Assembly: GCA_004431415.1 (NCBI GenBank)
Contig: QPMI01000535.1
Coordinates: 248,001 to 312,000, forward strand
Length of the DNA stretch: 64,000 nucleotides
Direction: 5' to 3'
Source of the DNA: Cyanophora paradoxa CCMP329
Lineage: Eukaryota; Plantae; Glaucophyta
Shown here: in pieces, positions 9,532 to 62,475 of the stretch
Layout: the number at the start of each line of letters is the position of its first letter
Numbering within the stretch: position 1 is the stretch's first letter
The notes under the pieces: generated by a model
Seen by the model: the letters and a program-made list of their open reading frames with translations, nothing else
Database searches by the model: none
What the model was told of the DNA's origin: nothing
Position numbers and translations under genes: made by a program

Positions 9532-9777
9532 GGACTCGAGGCGGAGGGAGAGCTCGAGGGACGCCCGTGCCGCCTCCACCGACTGCCGCGCGGGCCGGGG
9601 CGACGCTCGCTCAGACGGCACGCGAGGCGCCCTCTACACGCTCGCTCACGCCGTCTAGACGTCTAGACGTCTAGACGTCTCGAGGGAGAGAGGGCAAGGC
9701 AGAGGGGGGGAAGACGGCGTGCGGCGCCGCAGAAGAGGAGGGGCGGGAGGAGGAGGCGCGAGGCGCGGAGGGGTCTA

Positions 9778-16092: not shown

Positions 16093-17672
16093 CTAGATCC
16101 AGTTGTCCGGGCGGGTCTTGACCCAGCGCGCGATGCCTGCGGGCCGCCGGATCGCGAGCGGGCGTGAGGGAGGGACGGAAGAGCACGGGAGATGCCCCAG
16201 GCCCTCAATTCCCCTCGCGCACCGCTGTGGCAGGCCGTCTTGTCGACGGCCTTCCGCAGGTTCGGGAGCGTGTCCAGCACCGCGTTCACCTTGTCCTGCG
16301 CGCCGCGAACCCCGTCAGCCCGGGCCCGCCTCCCGCGCCCGTACCCCGGCGCGGGTCCCACCTTCGCGTCGTAGAAGTCGCGGAGAAGGTAGTAGAACTG
16401 TACATGTGCGCCACGGCGCCACGTCAGGGGCACGTCGAATTTGGGGGAAAGGGGGGTACGGGGGCGCACGTGGATGTCCGCGAGGGAGAGGCGGTTGCCG
16501 ACGAGGTACCCCCCGAAGCCGTCCGCCGCGTTCTTCGCCGCGAACGCCTCTACCCCCTTCAGCAGCGCCGCGAAGGTTGTGCTCCAGTACTCCTCAACCT
16601 GGGGTACGGGTTCGCACCCGCTCGGGGGGTACGGGATCGATCGAGAGCGGACCTTGGCCGGGCTCTCCTTCTTCGCGTCCATGTACTTCTGCTTGATGTC
16701 CAGCGCCTCTGCGGGGGGTACGCGTCGCCGCGCAGGCCCGGCGAGGGAGGGGGGTACGCACGCTCGCAGAGCGCGTCGATGAGGGCCGCCTGGATCTCGT
16801 CGTCTCCGAACATGCCGAAGCGCTGCGGGGGAGACTGAGCGGCGCGGGTACAGCGCGCGCGCATGGCCAGGGGTACGGGCGCGCACGCGGGCGAGGTAGC
16901 GCTCGATGGCGTGCGACTGGGGGATGATCTTGCCGTCCACGTGCAGGACCGGGATCTGGCCTGCGGATCGCGCTCGGATCGTTGGCGTGCGGGTCTAAGA
17001 GGGGCGCCGGCCCGGGTGCGCGGACCGAACGGGAACTTCCCGGCTGCGGGCGCAGCGCGCGCGCGCGTGCGTCAGCGTACGTCATTGCGGGCGGGCAGCG
17101 AAAGTCTGCCTCCCCCGGCGAACCTTCCTTGTCCGCGTTGAACTCGGGCTGCGCAGAAGCGCGCGGCGGTCGTCAGCGCCGCGCGGTTGGAGCGCCGGCG
17201 CCGCGGGCGGCCGGCGAGCAGCGGCCGATCCAACGCCCGCGCGTCATCGAGGCGCGGGGAGGGGGAGGCGAACCCGCTCGAACGTCTTCGAGATCGGGTA
17301 CCTAGCGATGCGGCGTCACAGGCAAGGAGGCGAAGCGCGAAGCGAGCCGCCGTCACCTGTAGTCCTCGTACTTCACACCAGCCGCCGCGAACACAAGGCG
17401 AGCGACCTAAAGAACAAGTATCAACCATATTGGTCGCAATCATGCCGCCACGGCGCCTGCGAACCTCGCCCTTGCTGTATACGAGTCGGACCGGCGGGCC
17501 GCGTCAGCCCAGAGCGAGGCGAAGCGTTTCTAGAGAGCAGCGCATTCAATTACGACGCACCCGCGGGCATCGAAGTACCTGTGCGAAGACGCGGGGCGAC
17601 GTCAGCGAGGAAGGTTCGGGCGGTGAGGGCGGTGACGGACACTAGCTTGTAGGACGACGCGCTGATGCCCAT
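16093..17672 (-). CDS. Glutathione S-transferase (sigma/alpha-like cytosolic GST)
   Basis: Spliced: MGISASSYKL.YFDARG.GE, KYEDYRYP, KFPFGQIPVLHVDGKIIPQSHAIERYLAR, YLVGNRLSLADI, IARWVKTRP; stop 16093. Confidence 0.9.
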
Positions 17673-22336: not shown

Positions 22337-25300
22337 CTAGAGCTGGGCAAAGGTGCTGGCTGGGCCCGACTTGAGGCACATGCGGACGGCCCCGGAGCCG
22401 GAGCCGGCCCGGCTGCAGTCGCTGCACGGGTCCGCCGCCTCCGCCACGCGCCAGTCGTACACACCCACCGCCCTGCCCGCCATCAAATATCAGATCACTG
22501 GCTTGCGGTGTCGGAGCTCATGATCAAGGGGCGCGCACCCGTAGCCGCCGCAGAAGGCGCCCGGGGGGGAGGCCCCCATGCAGGCGGTGCTGCAGCCGGT
22601 GTACGCGGTGCCCTGGGGGGCCGGCCCGAGGCGGGAAGCGGCGTCTAGGCTCCCCGAGACGAGGCAGAGGGACCAAGACACGCCGAAGAAGCGGAAGCCG
22701 AGGCGGGCCGCCTCCGCCGCGCACGCGCCGAGGCCGTTGTCGGGCGGCGCGCTCACCGACTGCATCACCGGCGCCGCCGCCGCCGCGTCGAAGGCGAAGC
22801 AGCCGCGGTACGCGTAGGGGAGGGGCGCGGCCGGCGTGTAGGACGGGGTCGGGGAGGGCGTCGCCGTGGGGCTCGAATTCGGCGCCTGCCACGAGGAGAT
22901 TGAGCGCAAATTCAGCTCGACAATGTTAATATTGGAAGCTTCAGTTTGTACAAGTGATCATTAATATTCATGATTCACGGATCAAGGATTCGTGATTATT
23001 AATATTTAGATTATGCAACACATTGGAACACGAATATTCATGATTATTAAATTTTAAAATGCATTTGCGATCATGATCGATATCATTCAATGATTGGAAT
23101 GCAATTCATGATCATTTTGCCGAACGTTCATGATCATAAAAATGCAATTGCGCATGCAACGGCGTCACTTGCAATTGCAATTTTATTCAACAGCACCTGT
23201 ACCTCAGTTGAGGTCTGGTTGGCCTTGGGCAGCACACGGTAGACGAAGATAGCGGTCGCTTTGGTCTCCTGGCGGTGCCAGACGTTGTAGACGACGCCTG
23301 GCCGTAGAAGATGGGCGCAGTCAGCACTACCATGCGCATGCATGCATTTATGCTATTTCACTGTTCGCTGAAATAGCTCCCAGCCGCAAACGAACCCTCC
23401 GGAGAGGCAGTAACGAGCTCCCAGTTGCTGAATTCGAAAAAGGCAAAGTCAGCGAATGTGAGGGGTTAGGGTTGGGGTTTATGCTAATTTATCACGATCT
23501 CGATACCGATGCGCGAGCATGTATTTATCTCGCTCGAGCGCGTACGGTTCGCGCACACGCAAGCCTCAGAGCCCCAAGTGCTGGTCGCCGCCGTGTTCGG
23601 GCAAAGGCCGGCGGGTGCGATCGGCTGGAGCCTGCCGTTACCGTCCCCGATGGGGCCCCCCGTCGTGTTCATCGCGTAGCTACGAGCGGGTCAAGCATTT
23701 ACAGCGACCGCGATCACGATTCATCACAAAAGCACGCGCACAGGTAGCCGACTGCTGCGACGACGAGCCTTGCGTCTTGTCCCCTGTAAGCTTAAGGTTT
23801 GCGGTTAACTTTAGTAATGAAGAAAAGGGATGGGGCTGGCGAGGAGAAGGTGGCCGGAGTGGGAGGGAGGAGCCGGGGGGGGGGGGGGGGGGGGGGGGGG
23901 CGGGAGGGGGGGGGGGGGCGGGAGGGGGGGGGGAGGAGGAGGGCGCGGGGTAGAAAGGGGCTGGAAAAAGGGGTGAAGGGGCGAAACGACATTCACACAC
24001 GCACGCGGCGTTTTGGACGAGGGTGAGGTGGCCCCCAATTCCGCCGACGGGACCCGAGCCGAGGGGCCCCGCGATCTGCTGGGAGGTGTAGGGCGCCCTC
24101 GTCGAAATCTGCGGTCGATCCCGAAACAGATCATGATCAGAAAAGATCCGTCGACAGTATTTGATAAGCCGCGCGCGCATCTCACCTTGAAAACGAGTCG
24201 ATCTGTCGTGGCTGCGTACACGTACGGCTGCGTCCGATCCGCCACGAGGCCTCGAAATTCTGGGTACGCATATAAGTATACGATTTGCAAATTAAAGAGC
24301 GGAATTCGAAGCCTATGTCTACGTATCCGATCGCGGCGATCGCGATATGTACCGATTTCCTGGGGATCGGTCGGCACTCGAAGCCTCATGGCGGCGACCA
24401 CGACGTCGCTTCCTGTTCGAAACTTATATGATTAATTAATATAATTATGGCTTGCAATTGTTCGCACCGTCCGTGTTCATACTCCACACTTCGCTTCGGG
24501 GCGCCTGAATAGAAACGAAGACGCGGTTCTCGACGGGGGAGTACGCGATTCCGCGAATTATTCCCATAAGCATGCGCCCCGTCGCGTTCGACGGCCGCTG
24601 CCCGACCTGTAAACTCGCTCGTCAAGCTCATGCGTATATGTGCACGGCAGCACGGCCGGTGAGGGTCCGGATCCGACCGTGTGGGCGGGCGCTGTTTGCT
24701 CCGAGCAAGTGCCGGTGCCCGGCAGACGTCCCAAATCGTGGTCCGGGCCATCGAATGCGGAGACGGTGTTCGTGGCCGGGTCGTAAAGACGCACTGCCGA
24801 GATATTATAATTAATGATCATGAGACACATATATATAAGTGTCGTCGATACGGAAGGTCTACAGCTCCGGGACTCACGGCGGCAGTTATACTGCGGAAGG
24901 GCATCGATGTGCATTACTCAAAATAAGAATTCGAATAGCGAAGATGGGGGAGGGGTAGGGGGGGCGAATAAGACGGGGGCCTACGCACTTCCCCGAGAAG
25001 AACTTTCTTGTTCGGCAGAGCTGAGAAGGAAAACGCGCAGAAAAGGCACTCGATTCATTAATATTACGCGCGGTCATTAATATTGTGCGTATCAGGGGGC
25101 ATGATGAGCAGCTCACGTTCAATTCCAGAGATCCAACTGCGAAAACACGCACACAGGCGGAATATTTAATAAATATTCGGCCGCCGGCCGCGCCTAGGGT
25201 CGCGATCGGATCCCGTATGAGGAAAATTTAGAGGATGGGTGTAATAAAGTGGGAGGAATAAATATACGGCCGTGGGCCGTACCGGCCGCGGGCTCAACTA

Positions 25301-26195: not shown

Positions 26196-26648
26196 GTTCG
26201 ACCCCGTGCACGTGCGCACCGCTGGGATCATGATCAGCCCGCGGCCGCCCGAGAGCAAATCCAGAGCCGCGTCGCTGCCGGGGGCTGAGGCCTAGGAGAC
26301 ACCGTGGCACGCACGCCGAATCGAAGCGAACGAACTGCAGCTGTACTGCGGCAGCATGCGCAGCTGCTGCGCAATGCGCGCACGCACACGCTGCCAGGCT
26401 GCGCGTGCACGTGCGTGCCGTGCATCACTTAGTGAGCACTGAGCACTGACTGAGTGAGCATGGAAAATTGCCGCGCGCACGCTGGCCGCGCCCTTCACGC
26501 TAGCGCCGGCGCACGTGGGTTGCGAATTCGCAGGTGAGCCGGTTCGAGAGTCGAGCTAGCTCGAGCTCAGATAATTTTCCATTCATGGACCGGAGCCGGC
26601 GCTGAAGCGGCTGATCATGATTCATGATTAAATATTAAATATTCATGA

Positions 26649-26902
26649 TCATGTGTTTTTTTGTGAATAACCGGCCACAGTCTCTAGACACCAGCACTGC
26701 GGGGGTGCCCAGGCCTAGGGGGAAATATTCGAATTCATGTGTGTTTTTGGTGAATTACCGGCCACAGTCTCTAGACACCAGCACTGCGGGGGCTGCCCAG
26801 GGGGCGCAGAGACAAAAAGCAAGCTTTAAGAGAACTAAGACAAGAGCACGAAGAAAGCAAACATGAGCTCAGAAGAGCACGGGGGCCCGTCGGGGGGTCT
26901 AT
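26649..26902 (-). mobile_element. Two tandem short A-tailed retro-insertions (family 2) at one target site
   Basis: Core CCGGCCACAGTCTCTAGACACCAGCACTGCGGGG at ~26671 and ~26758, each preceded by a T-run; target AAATATTCATG repeated at 26637, ~26723 (with micro-insertion) and 26905. Confidence 0.7.
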
Positions 26903-31212: not shown

Positions 31213-31617
31213 TGCTACATAGTAGATTAACCCATGTTCCCCTTGGAAGAAAATTCCGTTTAGTACTACGGCAGACTCAAACTGCCAGCATTGTTTACGG
31301 TGCGAACAGTCAAACTCACTGAGTGGAGTGTGCTCCATGGGTGGTCCAGCCTGCAGCTGGGCTACGTATACCAACAGTCGTGCCAGCATGTTTGGTAAGT
31401 GGGGAACTTGTGAATCACAGGCCAGTGGTTGAGTTGTCGCTCTCATTGGTATACTCAATTCGATATGCACTTGAAGGCTGCCAGTGCTGCCTTGACTCAC
31501 TGTGGTCACTGAGACGGGCTCCACAGAAGAAGAGAAAGTCACTGAGTGATGTATGACTCTGTGACTTTTTTAAAAAAGTAGTGGCAGCCGCTGCCCTTGC
31601 CGAGCTTGGAAGTATGA
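31213..31617. repeat. ~400-bp segment A, present again inverted at 33236-33631
   Basis: TGCTACATAGTAGATTAACC...CTTGGAAGTATGA is the reverse complement (with scattered substitutions/indels) of 33236-33631. Confidence 0.9.
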
Positions 31618-34600
31618 CAAGCAGGGGGGCTCCGCCCCCCCGCACCCCCCCAGTGTTTTTTTGGGTTCTTTGATTTCTTGAGGCTTTTATTCTTCTTCTT
31701 CTAATTAATTAGAATAAAAAATGAGACTGAAGTACTAAAAGTATGAAGACAGAACAGAAGAAGCTGAAGCACTGAGAAACGATTTTTGCTTGGATAGGTT
31801 CGGCCATGAACATGAAGAACAGAACAGATCTGAGTTCATAACAGAAAGAAGAGAGCATTTCAGAACAGATCTAGAAACGATGAAGTGATCATGCAAAAGA
31901 AGCACATGCAATGTATTTCAAAGGTTTGATCATTTATGTTCATTTATGTTATGTTTATGTTCATCGAACATCGAGTTTCGATGCTAGATTCTGGCCATGG
32001 CTGGAAAAGAAAGGGCAAAAGATCTTTGAGAATTGACAAAAACAATATTTTTTGCTTGCAATGATGCCATGATGAATATAATCATTGAATGCATGCATCA
32101 TGATCAATATACAGGTACCATCTAGAGCTCTGTTTTGTTAACGTTTGCAATTGTGCATGTTTTGTGCACGTGGTGCTTGTGTTGTGCTTTATTGTTTGTT
32201 GTCATGTTTTGTTGTTTGTACATTGTGGAACATGTGTACATGTTTTCTTTTTGTTGTGCATGCCAAGATGTTTAATTTATTGTACATGTTTGTTGTTTGC
32301 CAAGAATCGAACCGGTTCTGAATCGGCACTGAGCAGCCAAATGTACCACAGCACTTCAGTAAGAAAAAAGGTAAAAAAAGGACTTTCCATTGACAGAACT
32401 GCCGGATACACAATTTGAGCTTCAAAACTCCACTCTGTGGCAGATCTTGCTGCTTCAGGTGCAGTGCTAGGATGCTTCTTGCCAGTCTTCCTGGCCATGC
32501 TGAAGCAGCTGTAGAGCAGTGCTTGATGGCAGATAGGAAAGCCTTCCAGGTAACAACTGTGCCTCCCTTCCAGCAAGAACCTGATGGGTCAAGGACTTTT
32601 TTTCCAGATCTTTTTTTCCAAAACCGCGTGGTTCTTTTTTTGTTTTTTGTTCAAGATCTTTTTTTTATGCAATTCGCGTGATTGTTTTTCAGAAATGGAG
32701 AAAAACCAACATCAAACTTTTACAGTTACTTTTAGAGTTCAACCAACGACAAGCAGCCATCTTTGCCAGCCTGTGCAACACAGGTTTTTCAGTCCAACGG
32801 ACTACATCATAGTTAGTTAAAGACAGTTCGATTGTCAACAAATAACAAAGAAAGGACAATTAGTTTCTCATGTTTGTTGTTGGCGGGGGGGCTGTGCCCC
32901 CCCGCACCCCCCCAAAGTTGTTTTTGCTTGCGTTGATGTTTGTGGTGTTTTCTTCTTTTTGTTTATTGCTTTTCAAGAATCCAACCATTACTGAATAAGC
33001 ACTACAGTCACACTGTACAGTTCAGTGCGCACGGATATGGCATTTGCTTTTTGTGCAACGTGTGAAGAGATTCATTATTTGTTCTTTGCCAAGTATAGAA
33101 CAGGTTCTGAATCGGCACTGAACAGTCACAGCTGTTCAGGAAGAAAAAGGAGAAAAAAAGCGACTTTCCATTGACAGAACTGCCGGATACGCAATTTGAG
33201 CCACAAAACTCCACTCTGTGGCAGATCTTGCTGCTTCACACTTCCAAGCTCACTGGCAAGGGCAGCGGCTGCCGCTACTTTTTTTAAAAAGTCACAGAGT
33301 CATACATCACTCAGTGACTTTTCCTTCTCATGTGGAGTTTCTCTCAGTGACCACAGTGAGTCAAGGCAGCTCCGGCAGCCTTCAAGTGCATATCGAATTG
33401 AGTATACCAATGAGAGCGACAACTCAACCACTGGCCTGCGATTCACAAGTTCCCCACTTACCAAACATGCTGGCACGACTGTTGGCAGCCCAGGCTGGAC
33501 CACCCATGGAGCACAGTCCAGTCAGTGACTTTGACTGTTTGCACCGCTCTCAATGCTGGCAGTTTGAGTCTGCCGTAGTACTAAATGGAATTTTCTTCCA
33601 AGGGGAACATGGGTTAATCTACTATGTAGCAAGTGGCAAGATCTGTCACAGAGTGGAGTTTTGTAGCTCAAATTGTGTATCCGGCAGTTCTATCAATGGA
33701 AAGTCCCTTTTTTTCCTTTTTTCTTCCTCAAGTACTGTGCCTGTTCAGTGCCGATTCAGAACCTGTTTGATTCTTGGCAAATTTAAACAAGAAATAATGA
33801 ACATGTTCGCAGGTTGATCAAAAAGCAAATGCCATATGCATATTCGCACTGCACTGTACAGTGTGATTTCAGAACATTTGGCAAGCAACATACAATAAAC
33901 AAAACAACATGATAAACACCAACATATGATGCGAGCACCACATGCACAACACATGCACAACAAACAAGACAGAGCTTGTACTTGCATTTTTTGTGACAGA
34001 AATGGTTGGACTCTTGGCAAGCAACATACAATAAACAAAACAACATGGTAAACACCAACATATGATGCGAGCACCACGTGCACAACACATGCACAACAAA
34101 CAAAACAGAGCTTGTACTTGCAATTTTTGTTTCACAAAACAAATAACATTCTTTTCTAGATGCATATGGTATCTGTTTATTGATCATGATGCATGCATTA
34201 TATTCATCATGGCATCCGATGATCATTGCACGCATAAAATATTGTTTTTGTCAATTCTCCAAGATCTTCTTGTTTTTGTCTGAAGTGTTCAATTCTTAAG
34301 CCTCTTGCAATTGTTCAGTGCCGCAATGTTAACGTTCAAGCTTCTTGCCCATGTTCCTGCTAAGAATTGCCCTTTCTTTTCCAGCCATGGCCAGAATCTA
34401 TTAGGGTAGCATCGAAACTCGATGTTCGATGAACATCAACATAACATGAACATAAATGATCAAACCTTTGAAATACATTGCATGTGCTTCTTTTGCGTGA
34501 TCACTTCATCGTTTCTAGATCTGTTCTGAAATGCTCTCTTCTTTTTGTTCAGTGCTTCAGCTTCATTTTCATTCTTTGTGATATGATTGAGCCACAAGAG

Positions 34601-35070
34601 ATATGATATGATTGATATTCAATTTCAAACTTCTTGCAATTGTACAGTGCTTTAGCTTTTCTTCTCATCTTCCTGGCTAAAGCTAAGAATTGCCTTTCAA
34701 TTACTTTGCCAGTCAAGAATTAAACACCAATTGCAAAGCACTATATATATGTATGTTTCATGACAAATTTTTATTTTATTAATTTATTAAAACATAAATG
34801 ATGAAGCCTAGCTTTGGACTACATTGCATTTGGTGCATTGTTTCTTGATTACATTATCAGTGTTTAATTTCTACATCTTTCATGCACTCAGATCTGTTCT
34901 GTTCTTTATGTTCAGTGCTTCAGCTTCTTCTGTTCTGTCTTCATAATTTTAGTACTTCAGTCTCATTCTTTATTCTAATTGATTAGAAGAAGAAGAATAA
35001 AAAACCACAAGAAATCAAAGAGCCCAAAAAAACACTGGGGGGGTGCGGGGGGGCGGAGCCCCCCTGCTTG
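31618..35070. mobile_element. AT-rich non-autonomous foldback DNA element, long imperfect inverted arms, 3-bp TSD TGA
   Basis: Termini TGA|CAAGCAGGGGGGCTCCGCCCCCCCGCACCCCCCCAGTG ... CACTGGGGGGGTGCGGGGGGGCGGAGCCCCCCTGCTTG|TGA; arms alignable over hundreds of bp; third copy of the terminal motif at ~32883; CpG-depleted; no transposase ORF. Confidence 0.8.
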
Positions 35071-35585
35071 TGACTGTTTGCGAATGTTTGTGTTCTCATA
35101 TGCGGTATCATACGCGCACTGACAGATCGGGGACGGGCCAACTTGGCAATAGAAATCAAACTTCGAGGCTCAGCCGGCGAAGATCCCATGACTTTTTCAG
35201 CTATGAATCTCAAAGATATACTGTCTATTGTGAGAAACACCGGGAGGAACAGAATTTAGAGAGAGCCAAAGAAGAAGAAAACAGAGAAGAAGATGAGGGA
35301 AATTCGAGGATATTAAACCACATAGATTGCGAAAAACGATTAGACGAATTGAAAATAAAACGAAAGGAAATAGAAGAGGAATTTAAAAATCGTTCGAGTG
35401 GTTTAACTGTTACTCTGGTTCCGAGAAAGTATTTAACATGGAATGAAAAACATATGATGTGTAGAAACCCGTGGAAAGATTTGGTGAATTACACAAAAGA
35501 GAAAGGAAGATATTATGTATGTCAACAGCGCGTTAATCTCTTCCGTGAAATGGGTATTATGTCATCTTACAACTCATGGGTGTAA
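35071..35585 (+). pseudogene. AT-rich intronless ORF remnant (TE- or virus-derived), charged coiled segment
   Basis: YTVYCEKHREEQNLERAKEEENREEDE...; base composition unlike host genes; followed by several GGGTGTA(A)T motifs to ~35910. Confidence 0.4.
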
Positions 35586-35929
35586 TGTGAATCAATCGGA
35601 AAATTTAAAGTGTAACGGGTGTTAGTTATGGTTTGTTGTTTTTTATGGATTCAATCGAGAAATATGGGTATATTGGGTGTATCATCGGGAATCTCTCGTT
35701 GTTACTGAATGTCGTAAATAAAATGCGGTAAAATTTGGGTGTAATGCATATAACTTCGATTGATTAGATTTTAGATATAACTTCGATTAAATAAAATAGA
35801 TTGTGACTGAGGCTTACTGAGATTTACTGAGATTGGGGATTGGGTTACTGGGAATCATGCGGATATTGTGAAAAGCAGTGAAATATATTGGGGTAATTTT
35901 TGGGTGTAATGCTCACAGCTCAGCTCCGG

Positions 35930-37176: not shown

Positions 37177-38746
37177 ATTGTACATACACAAGTAGACGTG
37201 AAATATGGACCAGCAGCCTGGCAGACGGACCTGATCATGAGACGGTCCGCTGTGCACGTGGCCCAGCACCCGTCAGCTACGTGTATTGCCGTGTCCTGTT
37301 ACAGATGCGTGGCCTGTGCCATCGCTTCCGGCGCCACCCTCAAGGTCCGATAGAGATCAAGAGCGCATGTGCCCCGGCGCCCCGGCTGAGGCGGCGGGCG
37401 GCGGCACATGCGCAGCACGGCGGAGCCCTTCTTCCTCGCCTTTGAATTCCGAGTTCCGCTTTCGAGCCGGGCGACGTCGTAGACTGTTAGTAGTATGTTA
37501 CGTAGACGTTGAAATTTCGGTTGAATGTATCAAACGGCGCCCCGCCGGGCCGCTGCGACCCTGTCGAGTTTTCACTTCCCATCTGATGGAGCTTATTCAT
37601 GACGTGCACGTGGGTCGACGTCGACCAAAAAAGGATCTCCCGAAGCTCTGTAGACGCGTATACGTACGTCATCTTGCCTAAGCTCGAGAAAATGAAAATT
37701 TTAGACAACGTTAACGAAATCTTCGTGCACGTGCACATGATCACTGATTCAATTCGCAAGAAACCGCCCGCGCTAAGTGCCGCTAACGTCGTCAGCCTAA
37801 CGAGGCTAATTATATATAACGGTGTCTGACACCTGGCGGCCCATGGCCAGCTGCGCATGCAGTGCACCACTGGTCCACTGCACGTGCACGTGGCGGCCCA
37901 CTGGCGGCCCGGCGCCCTCTCTGCCTGCATAATAGTGCATCATGGCACTTTCACCCTGGAGGACAATGCTTAGGACATCGCCGAGTCGGACCGTCGGACT
38001 AGCTTTAGCCTCTACTAAAGCTAGTAGCCTTCAAACTTGAGGTTAGATACAATTGCAATTATATCCTTTCGTGTTTCGTGACTTCACAGCTCGTCATGAT
38101 CACGTCACAGACTCACAGATCTAGACTCTGAGAGTCTGAGAGCTGCCAGACTGCTAGTGCCTGCCACTGCGGAAAATTTAATTGACGCGTACGCGTACGG
38201 GTTGTGACTCGTGAGAACTTGTGACGTGATCATGAAAGGTTGTGACGCCGTGACGGGAAGGCGATTCGGGCGAGGACTCCGGGAGGAACTGGCCCAGTGG
38301 GTCCAAATTTAGACCGTCGGACTGATCATGATTCAGTAGCACTGGGGCTGAGTCACTGATCATGATTGACTGATCATGATTCAGTCATGCATATGGTATT
38401 TTGCTCTATGGCGCCGGCGGGCCGGGTTTTACAAAGTGAAAACGCGGTAATTCATGCCGCGGTAATTTACCCGGTAGTGCCCGACGCCGGGCCCGGCGGG
38501 CCGACGGTAGTAGCCTAGTATATACGTAGCGGGCCACTAGCGGCGAGTCCGCCGGCGACCCTTCTGTACCAGGTAGCGCTACGTACCGTGAAATACTTAT
38601 TTACTGCGCCACAAATTACTGCGTTCCAAATTGTCTGCGCCGGTAGCGCTTTACGCGTTACCAAATTACCGCGTTCTAAAAAATTTCAAGTTTGAACGCA
38701 GTAATATGGTAGCGCAGTACTAGTAGGTATATCAGCGCGGTAATTA

Positions 38747-39150
38747 CTGTAAACGTACGTAGAAATTTTCGTCGAGACTTAATTTCGACAAAACCCGATT
38801 TTTTTGAGAGACTACGGTGGGGCGAACCCCCCGTAGGTAGTGATATTAAGGACAACAAAGCAATCACAAATCAAAGATACAGTAAAGTAGTACAAAATAC
38901 AGAATCAAGAGGGATCACGAGAAGGGACACGATCAGATCTCGACAAAACCCGAAAATCGTGACGAAAATATGGTTCGACAGCATCATATTTTCGTCAGCC
39001 GCAGCTGCAGGACTCCGCCATAGATGGGTCAGCCGTTGATACCCCTCTCCATACAAAATTTCAGTTCCAGAGCATCAAATATTCGTCAAAGCGAGGGTCT
39101 GGCGAATATAGACGAAATAAAGACGCTGTCGAAGATTCCTACGTTTACAG
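38747..39150. mobile_element. MITE B (TA TSD) nested in the right TIR of MITE A
   Basis: TA|CTGTAAACGTA(CGTA)GAAATTTTCG ... CGAAGATTCCTACGTTTACAG|TA. Confidence 0.8.
38799..38939 (-). mobile_element. Short 5'-truncated A-tailed retro-insertion (family 1) with 14-bp TSD
   Basis: TSD TCGACAAAACCCGA at 38785-38798 and 38940-38953; T7 run then GAGAGACTACGGTGGGGCGAACCCCCCGTAGGTAGTGATAT. Confidence 0.85.
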
Positions 39151-40014
39151 TAAGTATTACACGGTACTACGGTAGCGCTGAATCACTGTGCCACTGTACA
39201 CTGCCGCGGTGTTACTGATCATGCCAGCCTGGCAGTGATGATGATGGCTGATCATGACTCAGTGACGGCGGACCCTGCACGGCTCAGTCGCGCTGCTGAC
39301 TCACGCAGCCGATATCGATTCGAGCGGCTGCCCGTCCCGGTCCGACGGTCCGACGTCCGACGGTCACGCCGGCGGCCGCGGCGGATCCACTGCCGCTGGC
39401 CAAGACTCTGAGACGTCGCAGACTCGCAGGCTCACACTGCCTCACAGCCAGAAGTTGCCCAGAATTGAGCGTCACAGCTCGTGCCGCTTGATCATGAGCA
39501 CGCGCATCGCGCGCCTCAAGCTAGCGCTCGCGTCATGACGCTGTGACGAGTCAGTCGGAGTCACCGATAGATCATAGTATATGAGGCGCCAAAACTTGAA
39601 ACTGTGGCTCAAAACTTGCAATTGTACTACGGTAATTTGTCAGCTGGCCATGCCATGATCATGATGGCACCGGGTTGCAGGTCCGGCCCGGCCGGGCGCA
39701 CTTCTCAGAGTCTAGACATCAACTTTTGGCCCAGTGGCAACACTGAGTCGACCGTCGGACACCGACTCTCAGAGTCTACAGCTATATACCAGTACTAGCT
39801 ATAGTACGGTATACGTATACGTGGGCGCGGCGCTGAGCAGCCTGAGCCGCGTACGCAGTACGCACTGCGGCAGGCGCCTCCTTATAAGCAGAAACGCGAT
39901 ACACACGCTTACGGTTGTCCACGCGTACGGTGATCCGCCCTCAGCTGCAGTCTGGATCTGAGACTCGACTGCAACCGCCTCCTAATACGTGGAACGTTTA
40001 CTTAACGCTGCTAG

Positions 40015-43000
40015 ATGACGTGGATAAATATACGTATACGCACGGTTCCGCGGCCGCTGCTTGCGTGGGTTGCAATCATATTCTTCGGCGTGCTGCAGCT
40101 AGCACTGCCCGCCGTAAATGCAGGTGCATCGGATTCCTTATTGTGTAAATTGTATGCGTATACTATATATGTAAGGCCGCGCTGATAATAACAACTGCGC
40201 AGCTGAACCTCGTTCGATCAAAATTGATTCGCCTTCTCCGTCGGCTCCCTTGAAAGCCATCGAGATCCCGGCCGACGCGGTCTTCACCATCAAATGGACA
40301 GCCAACTTTTTGTGCGGTACTGCCACTATGTCGTACTGCCTATCGAGCACTGGCGAGAAAAACAAGCTTGTCGTCGACATTGTGCCTGACTCCGACGCGG
40401 AAGTCCTGGGCCCGACCAAAGCCATCGCGAATCTCATTGGCGGAGACCGTGCGTCACGGCGTTCTCATAATTATATAAGATATATATATATATATATATC
40501 GCGTGGCTCTCGCATATGCTCATGCATATGCAAATGCATACGAATTCCTCTATCGTATACGTAACCGCACCGCAGAAAAGTACTTGCGATTCGGTGGCTG
40601 GCATACCGCCGAGACGCAGACGGCAGTGGTAAGGATGCCGAAGCTGGACAGCAACAATGCCGCTCTGAGGACTAATATTCCCTATCGTCTCCGCTTCTAT
40701 ATGAAAGACGCGACGAAATGGACTCTAGCGGAGCGAAACGTCGAGTTCGATTTCATTATATTCGTGTTGATTGATTCTGTGACACACACTGCAACCGTTT
40801 CGGCAAACTCCGTGCTTCGTGGTGAAACGGTGCGCGCGTCTACATCTTAGCGGCTTTATCTATATTTAGTGACTCACGATTGTAGATCTCCTGCTCGTGG
40901 TCGCTAAGCGCTGGATCGCCGACGTCTTACGTGGACGCATCAACCAGTTATCTGGGTCTGTACTTTGCAACAGACACTGACGGCGCGAGCACGAACCTCG
41001 GGATCACAAGTCTTTACAGCACGGTGAGCAGCGGCACAGAGGCTTTCCAGGTTCGGAAATTCGATGCCTTGCGAATTGCTACGTATATGTATATTCACCA
41101 GAACGCACGGTTGGTTTCGTAACCGCTCTACAATTAGATATCATCGACAGCAGCGACGACAACGTACGCTTGCCGCTACATTACCATTTATACACAGAAT
41201 TACAATAGCCCTCTCTCCACGGTATGCAAGTATCCAGGAAGCACTCCATGTTCCCGCAAACTCCAAATTGTCAGGTAATTGCACATGACCCTCACACAGG
41301 CAATTGCCAGCGGCTCTAAATTTATTAAAGCTCTAAAGCGCTTTAGTGATTTTGATTCTATGGCCCACGCAGGGCCTCTAGCTCAGAGTTTACAGTCACG
41401 GCGCCGGGGTCGGCTGCGCCGGCCACGGCGCCCACGCCAACTGCTGCTCCCGTGTCGGGCTCATCGACGTCGACTTCGACGTCTCCGAACAAATACGGCG
41501 CTTGCGGCCTCAGCAAGACGTGCTCCGCATGTTCCGGTGCGCAAGGACGTGAGAGTAGGCTGCTCCGAGCACGTTCTACTGTTATCGAGCTCGGCGCGCA
41601 GGCGAGTGTCGCTGGTGCTCCACCGGCGGAATGGGCGACTCGGGCGTCTGTATGCCTGCATCGGGTTCGACAGCTACTTGCGCAAGCCTCAACGGGGCGA
41701 TCACGGCCTCCGTCGATCTCTGCCCGAAGGACACATGCGCGGCGCTGACGTCTTGCACAACCTGCGCCGGTTAGAGTTCCCCTGTCCTGAATATGTCGTC
41801 TTCCTGATTGCGATCGCAATTCACTGGCGCGACTGCGCGCATGGTCAGCCACTGGATGCTCGTTTTGCGGATCAGCTGGCGACGGCGGAATATGCACTGG
41901 CGCAGCTTTCGACGGGTGCCCTTCACCGTTCGAATCGTTGACTCCCACCTCTGTTCAGGGGAGCTGCCCCGCACCGTGCTCTTCCTTGACATCGTGTAAT
42001 TCGTGCCTCGGTTCGCGCATTCTTGCGTGGGCTCTTACTTGACGTTTTACTAAAACGCGCGGCCACGGCGTCGACCAGGCTCTTCGAGTTGCAGGTAAGA
42101 GAGCTAGAATGTTTGATTCCCGATTTAATTCCATCCATATTCGGCTAGCGCTTAATTATAATTCCTGCAGCTGGTGCGAGGGCGCCGGAACGTGCATCGC
42201 AAAGTCGGCATCGTGCGCATTGGGCAAGGCCATCACTGGCCAGGCAGCGTCATGCCCAGCTCCCGACTCGCGTGGATGCTCAAAGCTCACGTCATGCTCT
42301 TCCTGCTTTGGTGCGTATAATGCGATCGAATGTTTTACGAGATCCGCACGCGTTTGCGCTTATGGATACGCGTACGTCTGCGCATGCAGGAGTAACAAAC
42401 TGCCAGTGGTGCGGAAATGCGGGCGATGCCGGGCAGTGTTTGCCTGTTGAGGACATGAGTCCGGATCCAAATACGGGAAAAGAGTCCAAGTGCAGTTCGA
42501 CGAGCAAGGTCCTGAGCCTCGGAGCCTGCCCAGCACTCTGCTCCGCGCAGACGCAGTGCTCTGGCTGTACGGGCAAAGGCTGCAAATACTGCGGTGGCGC
42601 CGGCGAAGGCGGTCTCTGCCTAGGCACGGCATCAGCTTCGTGCACCGGCATTCACGCGAGTCTCAGTCCGATCGTCGTACCGGCACAATGCCCTGCTACG
42701 TGCACGTCGCACACCACATGTGCAAGCTGTGCAGGTGCTCACGGTCACTTGCTTTGCTTGCAATCTCTGCAATTGACATCGCTCGCAGTGGTGCCTGGAT
42801 GCGCCTGGACATCTGCGGCCAAAGGCGACGGCGGCACATGCTCGTCCCTCGCCGACGCCCCAGCGACGGGATCCATCACTGCCGTTTCGTCGTGTCCACG
42901 CACGTGCACCTCGATTTTGTCGTGCGGTCCTTGCGCGGATTCGGGTGCGCTTTGCAGACGAATGGCCATGGCCCGTTTGCATGTTGCACTTGTTCAATCG

Positions 43001-45442
43001 TGAAATGCGAAGGTCGGTGCTTCTGGTCTACGGCGACGTCAAAGTGCAGCTCCACTGCGACGGCTGGGGCCATTTCGGAGAGCGGCAAGTGTCCGGCCAC
43101 CGCCTGCACTTCGAGTCTCTTCTCCCACAGCTGCCTGTCGTGCACGGGGCCTGACGCCCTCGGAGCATGCCACTGGTGCGACGCGATCCTTTTCGATATA
43201 TATACTTCGGAATCTGAATAAAAATTCGAAATCTGATCACGGGCATGATTGCGCGGGTGCAGGTGCTCAGACAGTACAGGAGCGGGTACGTGCGCAACCG
43301 CAGGCCAATGCAAGTCGGGCATGGCATCTTTTGGAGAGTCTTCACAGTGCTCGTTTGCCTGTGCGCTCAATAGCCCGCAATTGTGCGTGTACGATTGCAA
43401 ATTAATCGCGTTCATGGCAGCCAAGTTCACCATTCGACTCTCGTACGGAACTGCGACTGTGCCTCCCCAGTTCTGGTACGACAGCGGTGTGCGAGAGGAC
43501 CTCAGAATCTGGTTTGCGGAGCTGGCAAAGATCGACAAACGCCTTGTCAAGGTTCGCATAAATCGCAATTCTATATTTTTCACTTTAAATCAATATGCGG
43601 CTCCGTTTCTCGTCAGCTTATAATAATCTCAGATCTTGTCGCTTACCCAAGGCTCCGTGATCGTGGAGGGCGAGGTGAGAGGATAATTAAAACATTGCGA
43701 TCGATTTTATTTGTCGCGAGAAACCCAGAGAGATTCACGCATGCGCACACGCTCGATACCTGCAGATTCAATCCAGCGAATCGACGGCAAGCACGACTGC
43801 TGCAGTCGGCACGCTCATCTCCAGCCTCAGCAAGGCAACCACCAAGAAGCAGATCGGATCGCTCATGCTCGGCCCGACGCGCGCCTGTGACTCGGCCTCG
43901 AACTGTTACTCGAACAACGTATTTGCTGCGGAGGAGGCAGCGGCAGCATCTGCAGCCACCTCGAGCGGCGTTAACGGGGGCGCCGTTGCCGGTGGCGTCA
44001 TCGCTGCGATTGTTTTCATGTGCGTTCGTTCTGAATAAAGCTATTTTCCGTTTAGAGTAATTAAGCTGTTCATTAAATACAATATTGATCACGCACAACC
44101 GCAGAGCCGCCGTTTTCTTCTTGGTCTGGTGGTTCGTTATCCGCAAGCCGATGCACCCGCTTCCGGAGGGTATGAAGTACCACGCCTTCATCTCGTACCG
44201 CCGGGACGACGGAGTCGACCGCGCGCGGGGTCTGCAGTCCCTCCTCGCCCGCCACCAGTGCGTCTCCCTTTGAACTATTTCGATATCATTGGGGCCGCAA
44301 TACTTACTTGAGAACGAACTCGTACAGATTCAAGGCCTTCTTCGACGCGCGGAGTCTGGGCGCTGGGGACTTCGGCACTCAGCTCACTGTCCGTCCATGG
44401 CCAACGCGCGCGATGGTTGCCGCTCCCACATACTGATGTCCCTCCGCAGAGTGCGCTGAAGAGCTCCGTCGCCTTCATTTCGGTGCTCTATGAGCACACA
44501 CTCGACCGTGCTCGGGATCCTGTGAACGGCCACAGTGACTGGGTCCGAATCGAGATTGTGACAGCGCTCAAGGAGAAGAAAGTGCGCGTTTGCGCATATT
44601 CTTTAACGTTGACGAATTCATATCCTGATCGCACGAGGATCGCGATTGCAGACGATCATCCCCGTGTTCGACCGCGTCTTCAAGCAGAAGGACAAGATGC
44701 TGAGGGACGAGGAGCTCCCGGAGGAGATGCGCGGCTTCACACGCAACAACGCCGTCTTCTTCGACGCCATCGACGGCGCCGAGGACGCCGAGCGCAAGAT
44801 CGTCCACTTCGTTAGCGACGCCGTCCAGGCGCTGCTTGAGAAGGAGAATCGCAGGTGCGCAGCCGCTCCGATCGCGAAGATCTCAAATATAAGCTTGCAC
44901 ATTGCCATTGAAGCTAGAGATTGAGCTTTGCATTTCGCAGGGGCTTCCGGGCGTTGTTCCCCTTCTCCAAAATTAAACAACCCGCCTCCGGTCGCTTGTC
45001 GGATGTCGAGAAGGGGAGCAGTGACTCCCTGGCCGGCGAGGGTGAGAAGAAAACGGCAGCCCGGGGACCTGCAACTGTGCCCTCCAGCTCCCAGCTTAAG
45101 ATCTGGCCAGAGCCCGGGAGTTCCGCTCCGCAACCGGCTGCCGCCAGCTCAGAGCGGCCTGCAGTCGATCACAATCACGGATCCGGAGCGGCCGGCGCCA
45201 TGCATTCGGCCACCGCACCGGCCGCGGCTGCGGCCGCTGGCGCCCCCGCTTCGATCGCGAGCGGCGTCCATCCGAACCAGTTCGAGTGCCCCATCTGCCT
45301 CGCCGCCAAGGAGCGGCGCTTCGCGCTCGTCCCCTGTGGGCACGTCGCCTGCGCCGAGTGTGCAGCGAGCCTCATGGGCGAAGGCAAGCCCTGCCACGGC
45401 TGCCGGGGCGCCATCACCGGCCTTCAGCGTGTCTTTGAATAG
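40015..45442 (+). CDS. Type I membrane receptor: signal peptide, beta-rich N-domain, ~8 PSI-like Cys repeats, SEA-like module, TM, SARM1-like TIR domain, C3HC4 RING
   Basis: ATG 40015 ...PLLAWVAIIFFGVLQLALPAVNA; repeats of type C-x5-C-x2-C...C-x-W-C...CP at 41500-43350; GSVIV 43651-43665; TM GAVAGGVIAAIVFIAAVFFLVWWFVI-RK; TIR YHAFISYRR...FFDARSLGAGDF...DWVRIEIVTAL...IIPVF...LPEEM; RING CPIC...PCGHVACAECA...CHGCR; TAG 45440-45442. Confidence 0.88.
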
Positions 45443-45621: not shown

Positions 45622-45672
45622 CTCATATCACTACCTACGGGGGATTCGCTCCACCGTAGTCTCTCAAAAACA
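45622..45672 (+). mobile_element. Family 1 retro-insertion, very short copy
   Basis: ATATCACTACCTACGGGGGATTCGCTCCACCGTAGTCTCTCAAAAA, the reverse-complement homologue of the 38799/52639 copies; possible TSD ATTAGCA. Confidence 0.7.
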
Positions 45673-46095
45673 ATTAGCATCGCCCAATTTAATTTATCTC
45701 ACCGACTAGATAACACTGAGGACCGTCGAGTGCTGTGCTCTGTATTTGGTGTTTGTATATCTATTAGCTAGTGCTAGGTCTGGTCTGTAGCTTTAAAGTG
45801 TTTAGGTTCAATTAGGTCTTTAGGTCTGGTCTGGTTTTACTCCGTAACGAAGAATTCGTTTCGTTTGGTTTAGGTTTCGTTGGAATTTTCTTAACGAAGC
45901 ACGCATATAGTTCTTAAGCTTATCACATGCAAATAGCCTCTGGCATACATGTAAATAGCGAGTTTCCGGCGCGGGCGCCTCGTTAGCCAATGGCGGAGGC
46001 ATCGAGCTCCTTGCAATTTGCGTCTGTTATGCATTTATTTGGCAACGACAGATGAGCGGAATCGCGGGAGCGGCGCCCCAAACTCGGACCCGGGC

Positions 46096-51469: not shown

Positions 51470-52638
51470 CCCCCCCCCCCCCCCCTCTACCCCCCCCTAC
51501 CCCCGGCCCGGCCCGGCGTCCTTAGAGGAGTGTCGATAATCACGTGCACATGTCTCGTCGCCGGCTTTTTCCTCGGCTCCTGAATCGATATCGCTAGGGG
51601 CGGGCGGGGGGGGCGGAGCCGGGGGCCGGGGAGGGACGGGATGGGGGGGAGGGGGGGAGCAGGGGAGGGGAAGGGGGTCCGGAGGCGGAGGCGCCGGCAG
51701 CGCGGGGGAAGCGGCGGGCGGGGGGGGGGGGGGGGGGGGGGGCGGGCCGAATAGGAGCCCTCTAGCCTTAATTTGAGCCTTTCACTCTAGTGTTGCTGCA
51801 TCACACACCCTCGGCCCGGGACTCGGGCCCATCACACGGGACTCGGGCCCGGCCCGGAGGCCATGCCTAGGCCTAGGGTGCACTGCGGCAGCTGCATGCA
51901 TGTGGCGCCAGCACGCGCTCAGAGATTCAGAGGTACCAGCTCTCCAAGCTCACCAAAGCTCACCAATTGCAAGCTGCCCCCCCCCACTCTGGATCCCACT
52001 ATAACATTCAGATGTATATTTAACGAAAAACCAATCAGAGGGCTCACGATAACGCGAGGGAAAAGGAAACGCTGCGGGGTACGCCCCTCTGCTGCGCTGC
52101 GGCCCCCATCCGGGCCAGCGAGGGGGGCCGGGAGTTGGGGGGGGAGCTCGAGGGGACCGCGGGGGCGGGGCCGGGGACGGTGGGCGCCGAGGCGCGGCGG
52201 GAGGGGAGGGACGCCGGGGCGGGCGGAAGGGCCCCGAAACTGTCAGAGCTGCTCGCCCCGCTTCCGCTGCCGCCCCGCGAGCGCGCGGAGAGCGACCCGG
52301 GCGTGCGCGCCCCCTCCCCGCCGCTGCTCCCCGCGGCCGTCACTGAGATCTAGATCTCGTCTTCCACCCTCGCGATCGTCTGCTCGATACCTCTCACTGA
52401 AGCCGAAGGCGCCTCGGACACGGGCGGGACCTTCGAATTCCAGCCCCATGGCCAGATGGCCTGGAACGCCGCGAACACCTTAAGTAAGCTTCTGTCAGGC
52501 GCTGCGGAACTACATACGCAGCATGCGCCAAATATATTAATTGTACTCCTTAAGCTTGGTGCGCTCGCCACGGGCTTCTACCCGGTCTGAGACGAGAGCT
52601 TTAATTTCTGACTATCGATATCACTGAATCAATAGCAA

Positions 52639-52732
52639 TTTTTTTGAGAGACTACGGTGGGGCGAACCCCCCGTAGGTAGTGATATTAAGGACAACAAAG
52701 CAATCACAAATCATGATCAAAGATACAGAAAA
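52639..52732 (-). mobile_element. Family 1 retro-insertion with 16-bp TSD
   Basis: Near-identical to 38799-38880; TSD ACTGAATCAATAGCAA (52623-52638) / ACTGAGTCAATACCAA (52733-52748). Confidence 0.85.
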
Positions 52733-53315
52733 ACTGAGTCAATACCAAGATCTAGATCTAGTAGTAGACGATTTCTTCGCCATATTGCAAGGGGGGAAAG
52801 AAGGCCGAAGGGCTTCTCCCAGCTTGCTTCCCATTCCCTCGCTTCAGCCAAAATTTTTGTACGAGGCCGTTTTCGAGGTCCAGTATGCAACACCAGAAAA
52901 CAATGATGCTTTATTCACGATCCGATTGGCTCGGTGGACCGGTCAGCCTTCGACTTTCGAGCGTCAAAGTCGAGCTCGCGAGAGCTCTCTCTCTGTACGG
53001 TCTAGCTAGATTATAGCCTAGATAGATCTGTAGATTCTGTACCCGATCGCGATGACCGTCTGTACCGTGACTGAACCGTTGAACGTTGCTGCAACTTGCT
53101 GGCAAGTGCCAATTTGCCGCCGCCGCAGTGCTGCGAGCCCGCGTCTCCTCAGTGAGTCCTCGGTGACTCCTCACTGCCATACTGGTAGTCCTCATGATCA
53201 GGGCATGCAGACTTTGAGAGGCAGGGCCTCAGAGGAGTCAGGACTCAGGAGCCTGCGATTCGGACACCTCGAGGCTCGAGCCTCTTTTTGTGTCAATTGA
53301 AATTGTTTTTTGCTC

Positions 53316-53905: not shown

Positions 53906-53976
53906 CCTGGGCAGCCCCCGCAGTGCTGGTGTCTAGAGACTGTACACATGTGGCCGGTAATTCACCAAAAACAAAC
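53906..53976 (+). mobile_element. Family 2 short retro-insertion with 7-bp TSD
   Basis: CCTGGGCAGCCCCCGCAGTGCTGGTGTCTAGAGACTGT...GGCCGGTAATTCACCAAAAACAAAC flanked by CGCCTAG (53899-53905, 53977-53983). Confidence 0.75.
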
Positions 53977-57949: not shown

Positions 57950-58257
57950 ACACATATACAACGCCCGGCTTTTAGACCTCGGCTTATTTAAATTGATCTC
58001 GTTAGTATATAACCTGTATTTATAATATATCTATCGTGAATATGTGTGTATTTTATCTGTGATATGTATTTATTTTATCGTGGGTTATAGCTTCTTTTTA
58101 ATAAAATATGTGAAATATGTATAGTTTATGTGAAGTTTAGCTATATTCTCGATGAGTAGACTTATATATCTCGTGAGATTCATTATAGTTTAGGTGTGAC
58201 TCAACTTAGTTTAATTATAACTTGCCTCAGTCTAAAAGCCGGGCGTTGTATATGTGT
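57950..58257. repeat. 28-bp perfect inverted repeat around a 252-bp AT-rich spacer
   Basis: ACACATATACAACGCCCGGCTTTTAGAC (57950-57977) / GTCTAAAAGCCGGGCGTTGTATATGTGT (58230-58257). Confidence 0.95.
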
Positions 58258-58420
58258 GTTGTTCTGAATTTTCAATATAAAAGCGACGATCACGCGCCGT
58301 TTTATCAAAAACAACTACCATGAGCTGCATGGAACGTTCTGTATGCGGCTCTCTATAAAACAAAGTAGATCTATGATATATTATGATTGATTCTTTTGTA
58401 TTTTAATTGGTCTTATTCAG

Positions 58421-58792
58421 TGTTACAGGTGTTACAGGTTTATCCCAAAGTCCGCCCTAGGAGTGGGGTCTTGGTTCCCGAGTTTGGGCAAGACCTGTAA
58501 CACCTGTAACAACGTAAACAATTATCGTGTGCTGCATAAAACATTTCGCGCGCATCGAAAATATGTGATAGTGAATAGTTTCGCACTGAAAACGATACGA
58601 AATTGATCGTTATAATACAAAAATAATTACTACTGATATTATTATGATATACTAAGACTGATATTTTGTTGTTTTAATAGGTTCTTACTGAATTAGGTCA
58701 GTGTTACAGGTGTTACAGGTTCATCCCAAACTTTGCCCTAGGAGGGGTGGGGGATAGGAAACTTTGGGATAGACCTGTAACACCTGTAACAC
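58421..58792. repeat. Two inverted-iteron cassettes, family (TGTTACAGG)2
   Basis: Arms 58421-58439/58493-58511 and 58701-58720/58773-58792; both spacers contain CCCAAA..GCCCTAGGAG..TTTGGG. Confidence 0.95.
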
Positions 58793-58849
58793 CTTACTGA
58801 TTAGCACGTAAATGCATGAGTTTCGCATCGAGATCGTGCGGCTACACAT

Positions 58850-59520
58850 AGAAACTACGCAATTTACCGCAACTACTCAAAGAAACTACGCAATTTAATA
58901 CCGGGAACTACTGAAAAGATACCAAAACTACGCAACTACGCAACTTTCAGAAAAAGTTTGAAACTCGGGGCGGGAAAAATTTAGAAAAGTGAAAAACTTG
59001 CGTAGTTGCGTAGTTTTGGTTTCGTTTGCGTAGTTTTGGTTTCGAATTGCGTAGTTTTTCATGGTAAGATGAGTAGTTTCAAGTAGTTTATATATTATAA
59101 AGTAGTTTCTTATTAATATCAATATGATTCTATGATATATACCATGCTTTCTCTACTGAAAAGAGCGCCGGCATACTACAAGGGAAGCTACGCGATAGTT
59201 TCGCACTGAAACACGACCGTTTTATAGGCTACGCAATAGTCTCGCACCTAAATGCATGCGGACTCCCGGTAGACTACGCAATTTAACGTAACTACGCATG
59301 AAAACTACGCAATCTGATCGCTTTTAATACCGAAAACTACACATTTAATACCAAAACTACGCAACTACGCAACTTTCTGAAAAAGTTTAGAAGTTGGCGG
59401 GGAAAAAAATTAGAGAAGTGAAAAACTTGCGTAGTTGCGTAGTTTTGGTATTAATGGCGTAGTTTCCGGTATTAAGTTGCGTAGTTTAACATAGGTAGTT
59501 GAGTAGTTTAAAGTAGTTTT
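58850..59520. repeat. Two inverted-iteron cassettes, family AACTACGC
   Basis: Perfect arms 58921-58943/58998-59020 and 59345-59372/59427-59454, with several further (A)ACTAC copies on the left and GTAGTT copies on the right of each A-rich spacer. Confidence 0.95.
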
Positions 59521-59682
59521 TATTAATTATAAAGTAGTTTATTATTTATCTTATTGTTATCAGTCTGAGACTCTATGAAAATCGATTGACCTTAGTGTGA
59601 AACAGTGCGCCCCGCCCACTATGCAAGATACATGCCTTTCTTATGCATGATCTATGAAAAATAACAATAAACCCATCTCGCT

Positions 59683-59946
59683 TTACATAGGAGCACTCAC
59701 AGGAATTTCGCTTGCCTTTCGAACAGTCCCCCGATTAAACGCTTGCTCTACAATCGCTTCCTTTGTGAGTGGAATCGGAATTCCAGCGGCAATACACGAT
59801 TTAACTTCTTTGTCCACAACCTCATCAATCGCGATTCTCGCCCTATTATGAGCCGCATTATCGATCCAATCCTGAACAGAGTAGGCACAGTATTCCATTC
59901 CCAGTTTTTCAGTATCAGTTAGAACCACTTGGTAGATGTTCGACAT
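59683..59946 (-). CDS. 87-aa phage-type tail-fibre companion protein
   Basis: VVLTDTEKLGMEYCAYSVQDWIDNAAHNRARIAIDEVV...IPLTKEAIVEQAF resembles, from recall, small proteins encoded downstream of C1q fibre genes in aquatic bacteriophages. Confidence 0.75.
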   Translation of the reverse strand: MSNIYQVVLTDTEKLGMEYCAYSVQDWIDNAAHNRARIAIDEVVDKEVKSCIAAGIPIPLTKEAIVEQAFNRGTVRKASEIPVSAPM

Positions 59947-59955
59947 TCTTTTACT

Positions 59956-60981: not shown

Positions 60982-61002
60982 CTTTTGATTGTTCTTTACT
61001 TA

Positions 61003-62465: not shown

Positions 62466-62475
62466 TATTTCTCTA

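Follow-up and report, generated by a model that had tools for sequence, protein, structure and literature searches.

What kind of event leaves a triplet, its inverted copy and the triplet again, over and over, in one genome? The question is raised by a stretch of 64,000 nucleotides from the glaucophyte alga Cyanophora paradoxa CCMP329 (contig QPMI01000535.1, positions 248,001 to 312,000), here called the window; positions are given in its own coordinates, and all scar counts refer to it only. The alga is haploid, with a genome of 100 Mb, a GC content of about 67% and short introns (PMC6704402), and methylated DNA transposons have been reported in it (PMC12344493). The window is eukaryotic in character, with lower-GC blocks lying between GC-rich genes that have many short introns. 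A preliminary description had noticed that repeat copies at 31213-35070 differ by insertions of two forms, X-rcX-X (six added bases, rcX being the reverse complement of a triplet X) and X-C-rcX-G-X (eight added bases), and had read them as excision footprints of a transposon. The signature is a real, sharply defined mutational pattern, and the scars are probably the hairpin-repair footprints of one or more cut-and-paste transposons with a 3-bp target duplication.

The most direct evidence comes from repeat copies. All six motifs named earlier were found in place, and each of the six- or eight-base inserts is a clean gap between copies. Two of them, CTG-CAG-CTG (31351-31359) and TAC-GTA-TAC (31363-31371, where the counterpart has TGC instead of TAC), are confined to this copy. 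The family around 31213-31614 has a depth near 3,000 in the short-read run X8, in which single-copy pieces have about 100, depth being a rough guide to copy number only. The six bases at 31354 are missing in a depth of 2970 out of 3065, and those of the second site are omitted in contigs of depth 2345 and 626 out of the same total. Since the bases at 31354 and 31364-31367 are missing from most of the family depth, both are insertions in this one copy; the longer form arose from an ancestral single triplet X. The eight-base scars AAT-C-ATT-G-AAT (32080-32090) and ATC-C-GAT-G-ATC (34214-34224) are clean gaps against their repeat copies. GTT-AAC-GTT (32137-32145) has a GTTAAC gap against the reverse complement of 34050-34112, and the motif scan places a second motif, TTG-CAA-TTG (32145-32153), overlapping it. 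AAA-TTT-AAA (33779-33787), which is absent from the preliminary description, was found by motif scan and repeat-copy alignment, and TCA-TGA-TCA (52711-52719) lies in an unrelated, retroposon-like fragment, as seen by alignment with the copy at 38798-38886. At 34314-34317 the window itself holds an empty TCA site where other family copies read TCA-TGA-TCA; TCATGA is inserted behind 34314 in all four short-read runs (depth 1917 of 4486 in X8). Over 12 non-viral paralogue alignments (1,652 columns with 94 substitutions; some pairs overlap) there are 24 internal indels, 7 of which are exact motifs, and every one of the five six-base indels is an exact X-rcX-X. A different kind of eight-base insert, TTAGGGTA at 34395-34410, is missing from the other foldback arm and from other family copies; by its appearance it is a patch of telomere repeat added where the DNA had broken.

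Is the pattern confined to these copies? Against an order-3 Markov model fitted per 2 kb, X-rcX-X occurs 314 times in the window where 50.0+-6.6 are expected (374 against 87.6+-12.3 under an order-4 model with low-complexity matches kept). The form X-a-rcX-a'-X occurs 87 times against 14.5+-5.9, and a is C in 69 of the 87 where 5.7 would be expected; X-C-rcX-G-X itself numbers 67-69 window-wide against about 5.5. The enrichment over background and the C/G bias agree with what had been predicted, and together they support the excision-footprint interpretation overall. In four scar-rich blocks (21.7 kb), picked after the density had been seen, the counts reach 216 against 15.9 for the six-base class and 52 against 1.0 for the eight-base class. 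When unit lengths (n) of 2-10 were scanned at offsets of -1 to +2, which represent four hairpin geometries, an enrichment of about sixfold was found only at n=3 with offset 0 or +1. Versions of the two motifs with one mismatch also exceed expectation (555 against 219 and 70 against 21), as would be expected of a long-running process. Chance palindromes or an assembly artefact might be suspected in a window that is partly GC-rich and low-complexity, but the excess over the local Markov models is sixfold to fiftyfold, and the mirror control X-reverse(X)-X gives 14 matches in the same 21.7 kb where X-rcX-X gives 176. The motifs are also unchanged in all four short-read runs, whose contigs cover 31989-32191 and 34079-34296 with no difference; single-copy pieces of the window agree without differences as well. 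This explanation is refuted and keeps practically no probability. A further control, X-complement(X)-X, has 53 matches in the 21.7 kb, which we infer to be partly shifted frames of the true motifs.

Where, then, do the inverted copy and the fixed C and G come from? During replication a polymerase might switch template, copying X, doubling back for the inverted copy and returning, with no transposon involved. Under the model of PMC5453318 a four-point event would account for X-rcX-X; no element is needed, and the scars do occur in any kind of sequence. However, this model copies every base locally, and 43 of the 67 eight-base scars, both of the paralogue-proven ones among them, have no local C/G template. 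The flanks of the 67 are near random: 7 have C..G, 24 have C or G on both sides, and in 43 at least one of the two neighbours is A or T. Two specific templating rules are fitted by 3 and 6 of 52 eight-base scars, the latter by the rule that the central base is a complement. Thus the C and G are mostly not derivable from the flanks, which counts against template switching and also against a hAT-type cut. Template switching moreover predicts a spread of lengths, whereas units of n=4, 5 and 6 give 12, 2 and 1 matches against 5.8, 0.5 and 0.1 expected; we consider it an improbable source of the scars.

For a triplet to stand on both sides of its own inverted copy, X must first have been duplicated and both ends must then have folded back. 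In hAT, Transib, RAG and MULE systems, DDE transposases are established to form hairpins of the flanking DNA, which the host then opens (PMC5499845). The probable course of events, modelled on them, would be as follows. Insertion would duplicate X on either side of the element, as one local example suggests. At excision the transposase would nick the non-transferred strand, and the freed 3'-OH would attack the other strand to form a flank hairpin X|rcX, as in hAT, Transib, MULE and RAG biochemistry; a nick placed one base into the element would leave the element's first base, C, in the loop of the hairpin. The host would open each hairpin a few bases beyond the tip, leaving X-(C)-rcX at the left and, on the other strand, rcX-(C)-X at the right, which could anneal through rcX:X. 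Fill-in would then give X-rcX-X after a nick at the border (+6) or, where an element with C...G ends had been nicked one base further in, X-C-rcX-G-X (+8). Because the target duplication gives the opened hairpins this shared microhomology, one product would dominate. In a haploid host each jump would leave a heritable scar, and scars would accumulate wherever they are tolerated.

Could a single enzyme make both classes? If the nick were chosen independently at the two ends, the mixed seven-base forms X-C-rcX-X and X-rcX-G-X should number about 200. After removal of matches that overlap exact scars by more than 3 bases there are 15, against a background of 7.4 (47 against 29 unmasked and window-wide). 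Independent nick choice is excluded by this roughly tenfold shortage. It is likely that two enzymes are at work or that the cuts at the two ends are coupled, and the single source element of the preliminary description is probably insufficient. Both ends would be cut alike in each event, most simply because two transposase families act. The eight-base share varies between blocks (p=2e-4; 5 of 62 against 22 of 59, p=1.4e-4); clustering of eight-base scars next to each other is not significant (p=0.16), and the difference in target spectrum between the two classes is weak (outer base p=0.04, TCA p=0.24). One enzyme would be enough if the duplication were of 5 bp and a hAT-type nick fell one base into the flank, the tip base being lost in the six-base class and replaced by an untemplated C/G pair in the eight-base class, for example by a repair polymerase that inserts deoxycytidine monophosphate; the end strings would be the same. 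The plain version of this scheme requires C-X-G targets, and it is excluded by the flank pairs (7 of 67) and by the geometry scan, in which n=5 at offset -1 gives 9 matches against 3.4. In the version with replacement, the exchange of the tip base is an ad hoc assumption, and it would leave the two ends uncoupled. The one apparent duplication measured in the window is of 3 bp. We regard the scheme as unlikely.

Which element could have left the 3-bp footprints? The preliminary description had pointed to a resident foldback with C...G ends between TGA triplets. It is a non-coding, multi-copy element (31618-35070) with the ends CAAGCAGG...CCTGCTTG, which form a perfect 48-bp terminal inverted repeat; the arms are alike over about 500 bp, at 96% over the outer 158 bp, and the termini read CAAGC...GCTTG. 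Its depth is many times that of single-copy sequence, with loose ends at 31617, 31459 and 35073. The terminus is seen at other copies, as three contigs diverge just before 31617; one contig has the foldback end CCCCCCTGCTTG joined at 31459, and two continue from the right end through TGA. The left end stands at a TGA (31615-31617, plus strand) that marks an insertion point in repeat-family sequence, a sister copy reading through a single TGA. A second copy of this triplet, as TCA, lies at 32455-32457 (minus strand), within the element, where the rest of the interrupted sequence stands inverted; by comparison with the sister copy at 33236-33238, the overlap between the two halves is TGA and no more. 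The sequence suggests a 3-bp duplication at the left end, in a single case and a rearranged setting. The TGA at the right end (35071-35073, plus strand) is uncertain as a partner: the sequence beyond 35073 does not continue the family cut at 31617, so the TGAs on either side are probably not partners. The C...G ends and the flanking TGAs stand as first described, while the pairing of the two TGAs probably does not. Among the six-base scars TCA/TGA is, as proposed, the commonest X (25 of 172 against 6.2 expected, fourfold, p=4e-9), and this excess matches the triplet flanking the CAAG..CTTG ends; in the eight-base class it is not significant (4 of 52 against 1.9), and the spectrum is broad, about 85% of scars using other triplets. 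A resident multi-copy C...G family with its left end at an apparently duplicated TGA supports the reading of the scars as transposon footprints.

Inside this element lies an older nested foldback (33011-33863, arms 84% alike) which, if trimmed by 3, has the ends CACTG...CAGTG; its TCA/TGA flanks are inverted, so there is no clean duplication. Recurrent CAGTG/CACTG words were seen by eye. When the window was scanned for further elements that combine a perfect duplication with terminal repeats of at least 10 bp, only 31618-35070 was convincing, and the terminal-repeat pattern of the foldback had no match in metagenome contigs or in viral contigs. Next to it, 35178-35912 is a fragment of an AT-rich repeat of 5-8 copies, with the end of a 135-codon open reading frame (ORF) and repeated GGGTGTAATG words; it is possibly the end of another DNA transposon, and its ORF fragment (35178-35582) has no homologue among longer proteins and no usable Atlas match, only a faint PHROG match. 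Three tailed fragments of one repeat (38800-38941, 45625-45675 and 52638-52745) share a short GC-rich hairpin and flanking direct repeats of 7-14 bp, and to judge from these features they are likely 3' ends of a non-LTR (long terminal repeat) retroposon; a reading of the repeats at 38798, 45625 and 52638 as terminal-inverted-repeat elements is excluded by the T/A tail and the direct repeats.

Several observations weigh against the footprint reading. Of the 4 eight-base indels in the non-viral paralogue alignments, only 2 match X-C-rcX-G-X exactly; the remaining ones read TACCCTAA and ACATGTGT. There is a modest rise in shorter neighbours of the motifs (n=2 at offset +1, 244 against 151; at offset -1, 504 against 423 for n=3 and 63 against 43 for n=4), which may be shadows of the true motifs. 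At the foldback the TGA/TGA pair fails the empty-site check, and in the rearrangement that would account for this the second element end expected at 32458 is absent; no site was found in all three states, empty, occupied and scarred. The autonomous transposase proposed earlier did not appear, with no transposase Pfam match in 200 window ORFs (50 long ones and 150 of the 176 listed short ones), and Tnp2 (PF02992) was not found in these ORFs. A 5-bp duplication that loses or replaces its tip bases yields the same strings, so the scars alone cannot fix the length. Finally, published CACTA scars are heterogeneous and of 3-5 bp, not stereotyped at +6 and +8. As for the insert ACATGTGT (53940-53955, compared with copies at 26637-26801), it is palindromic, lies off the C..G rule and may be a 4-base-unit scar with one change. 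An array of the 8-base unit CGTCTAGA at 9652-9680, 3.6 copies of alternating palindromes, likewise fits repeated 4-base forward-inverted units and not the 3-base rule.

How does the pattern compare with known systems? The mark of a flank-hairpin footprint, an inverted flank copy at the joint, is present in the 7 exact repeat-copy cases and in the window-wide excess. Ac/Ds target duplications are of 8 bp and the scar unit is of 3 bp; n=8 at offset -1, the hAT geometry, has no match (nor has any n from 6 to 10), and the complement-centred palindrome fits the same 6 of 52 scars. Like the scars, Ac/Ds footprints in yeast, Candida and plants carry palindromic P-nucleotides from flank hairpins joined mostly by microhomology (PMC5873905; PMC4561436). 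Unlike them, they have the complement of the element-adjacent base at the palindrome centre, where the scars have no base or a fixed C/G, and they are heterogeneous, with 28 types in 128 Candida clones (PMC5873905) against two dominant products here. Transib, RAG coding joints and the MULE Muta1 share the host-opened flank hairpin (PMC5499845), but Muta1 excision is precise in more than 90% of events. RAG and Transib nick exactly at the element border, which would give X-rcX-X, and they duplicate 5 bp, MULEs more; in the window n=5 yields 2 matches against 0.5 at offset 0, beside the 9 against 3.4 at offset -1. The Harbinger element mPing has a 3-bp duplication and a repair guided by microhomology (PMC4561436), but it excises precisely and without an inverted copy, and the window scars contain rcX; its relative mJing leaves variable indels (PMC6850418). 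Tc1/mariner footprints keep terminal element bases between duplicated targets (PMC4561436), as we infer for the C and G, but involve no hairpin, no inverted target copy and a 2-bp duplication. The pattern works like a hAT/RAG-type footprint, yet it departs from hAT, Transib and Harbinger.

The CACTA/EnSpm (CMC) superfamily, in the Repbase grouping of PMC4455052, has a 3-bp duplication and elements that start with C and end with G (PMC3193017; PMC7139988), and a CACTA/CMC-like source is the likeliest candidate. A further likeness is that the nested foldback can be read as CACTG...CAGTG. The termini CACTA...TAGTG themselves are absent, the outer element having CAAGC...GCTTG and the nested one CACTG...CAGTG at best, and CACTA scars are variable (10.64898/2026.08.24.746626). 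We found no published account of CACTA nick positions or cleavage biochemistry, and no report in the literature of a nick one base inside an element's own end combined with a flank hairpin. The pattern is unreported in the literature searched, a weak absence because older CACTA footprint work lies mostly outside that search; the main text of PMC6704402, on the Cyanophora paradoxa genome, has neither 'palindrom' nor 'EnSpm'. New with respect to the known hairpin footprints of Ac/Ds and MULE are the 3-bp unit, the retained C, the stereotypy and the density of about 5 per kb.

How are the scars distributed? The total excess is about 300 in the 58 kb scored, and scars occur in unrelated sequence classes. 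In excess scars per kb, the blocks at 37.2-40.2 kb (19.7), 52.6-55.2 kb (14.2) and 22.0-28.2 kb (10.0) stand highest, followed by the foldback (6.4); values are low in the GC-rich gene block (1.7), at 46.0-49.3 kb (0.2) and in a virus-like block (0.2). The densest intergenic block, 37200-40200, holds 40 six-base and 22 eight-base scars, about 13% of its bases, and stripping the scars exposes nesting up to three rounds deep. If the window is typical, extrapolation gives genome-wide scars of the order of 10^5. In coding sequence, the GST exons have none in 630 bp; their frame at 16191-16709 leads to the protein eukprot:tig00021038_g17538.t1, 207 of whose 217 residues match twelve window exons exactly. 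Four in-frame 6-bp motifs lie in a predicted exon that encodes the linker ahead of a RING finger with a Pfam match (45179-45260, plus strand), against 0.33 in codon shuffles (p=0.002). The lower-GC gene concerned (40250-45442) has cysteine-rich repeats, a likely membrane span, the C-terminal RING finger and, by eye, a TIR-like stretch, an apparently receptor-like architecture. Within the scar-rich block at 22.0-28.2 kb, a minus-strand ORF with a weak WSC domain match (22493-22957) is possibly a decaying gene.

The virus-like block at 58-64 kb is nearly free of scars, with three six-base and no eight-base motifs, and none of its 13 indels in two alignments is of 6 or 8 bases. Being almost without scars, it is probably a recent insertion. 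Could a viral integrase or recombinase, or another non-transposon nuclease, have made the scars from 3-nt staggered breaks that were filled in, hairpinned and rejoined? The virus-like insertion and the lack of a transposase in the scanned window ORFs might speak for it, but the fixed C and G would have no source, while C...G elements are resident, and for a blunt, filled-in end to be closed as a hairpin requires DDE-type transesterification, a reaction performed by DDE transposases. We give this explanation little credence. The block (58000-64000) is AT-rich and intron-free, with four minus-strand ORFs, PHROG matches of unknown function and a C1q domain at 59956-60999; palindromic iteron-like arrays (58372-59549) precede the ORFs, and at its edge (57950-58257) stands an element of 308 bp whose 28-bp terminal inverted repeat is perfect and which has no clean target duplication.

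What do the scars mean for the alga? Transposon footprints usually come as a few dozen per reporter locus and are too variable to be counted in a reference genome, whereas the window scars obey two exact rules, so that a direct count is possible and gives about 300 over background. That no transposase was found and that only one window was analysed limits the reach of the finding. Palindromic insertions clustered in this way inflate palindrome counts, and variant callers can miscall them. If the pattern is general, much of the new non-coding DNA of this alga, and many of its in-frame insertions, would stem from excision scars. Since they fix the nick site of the transposase and the way in which the host opens and joins hairpins, they bear on the cleavage chemistry of superfamilies that duplicate 3 bp, such as CACTA. 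We put forward tentatively, with somewhat less than even confidence, that Cyanophora may have two 3-bp-duplicating transposases of different cut geometry, one nicking one base inside its own end and then hairpinning the flank. Their scars might be among the leading indels of the genome (of the order of 10^5, making up as much as 13% of intergenic bases and adding two residues at a time to proteins). The genome would then hold a legible fossil record of how transposases cut and which targets they choose, and for CACTA-type enzymes this might be the first.

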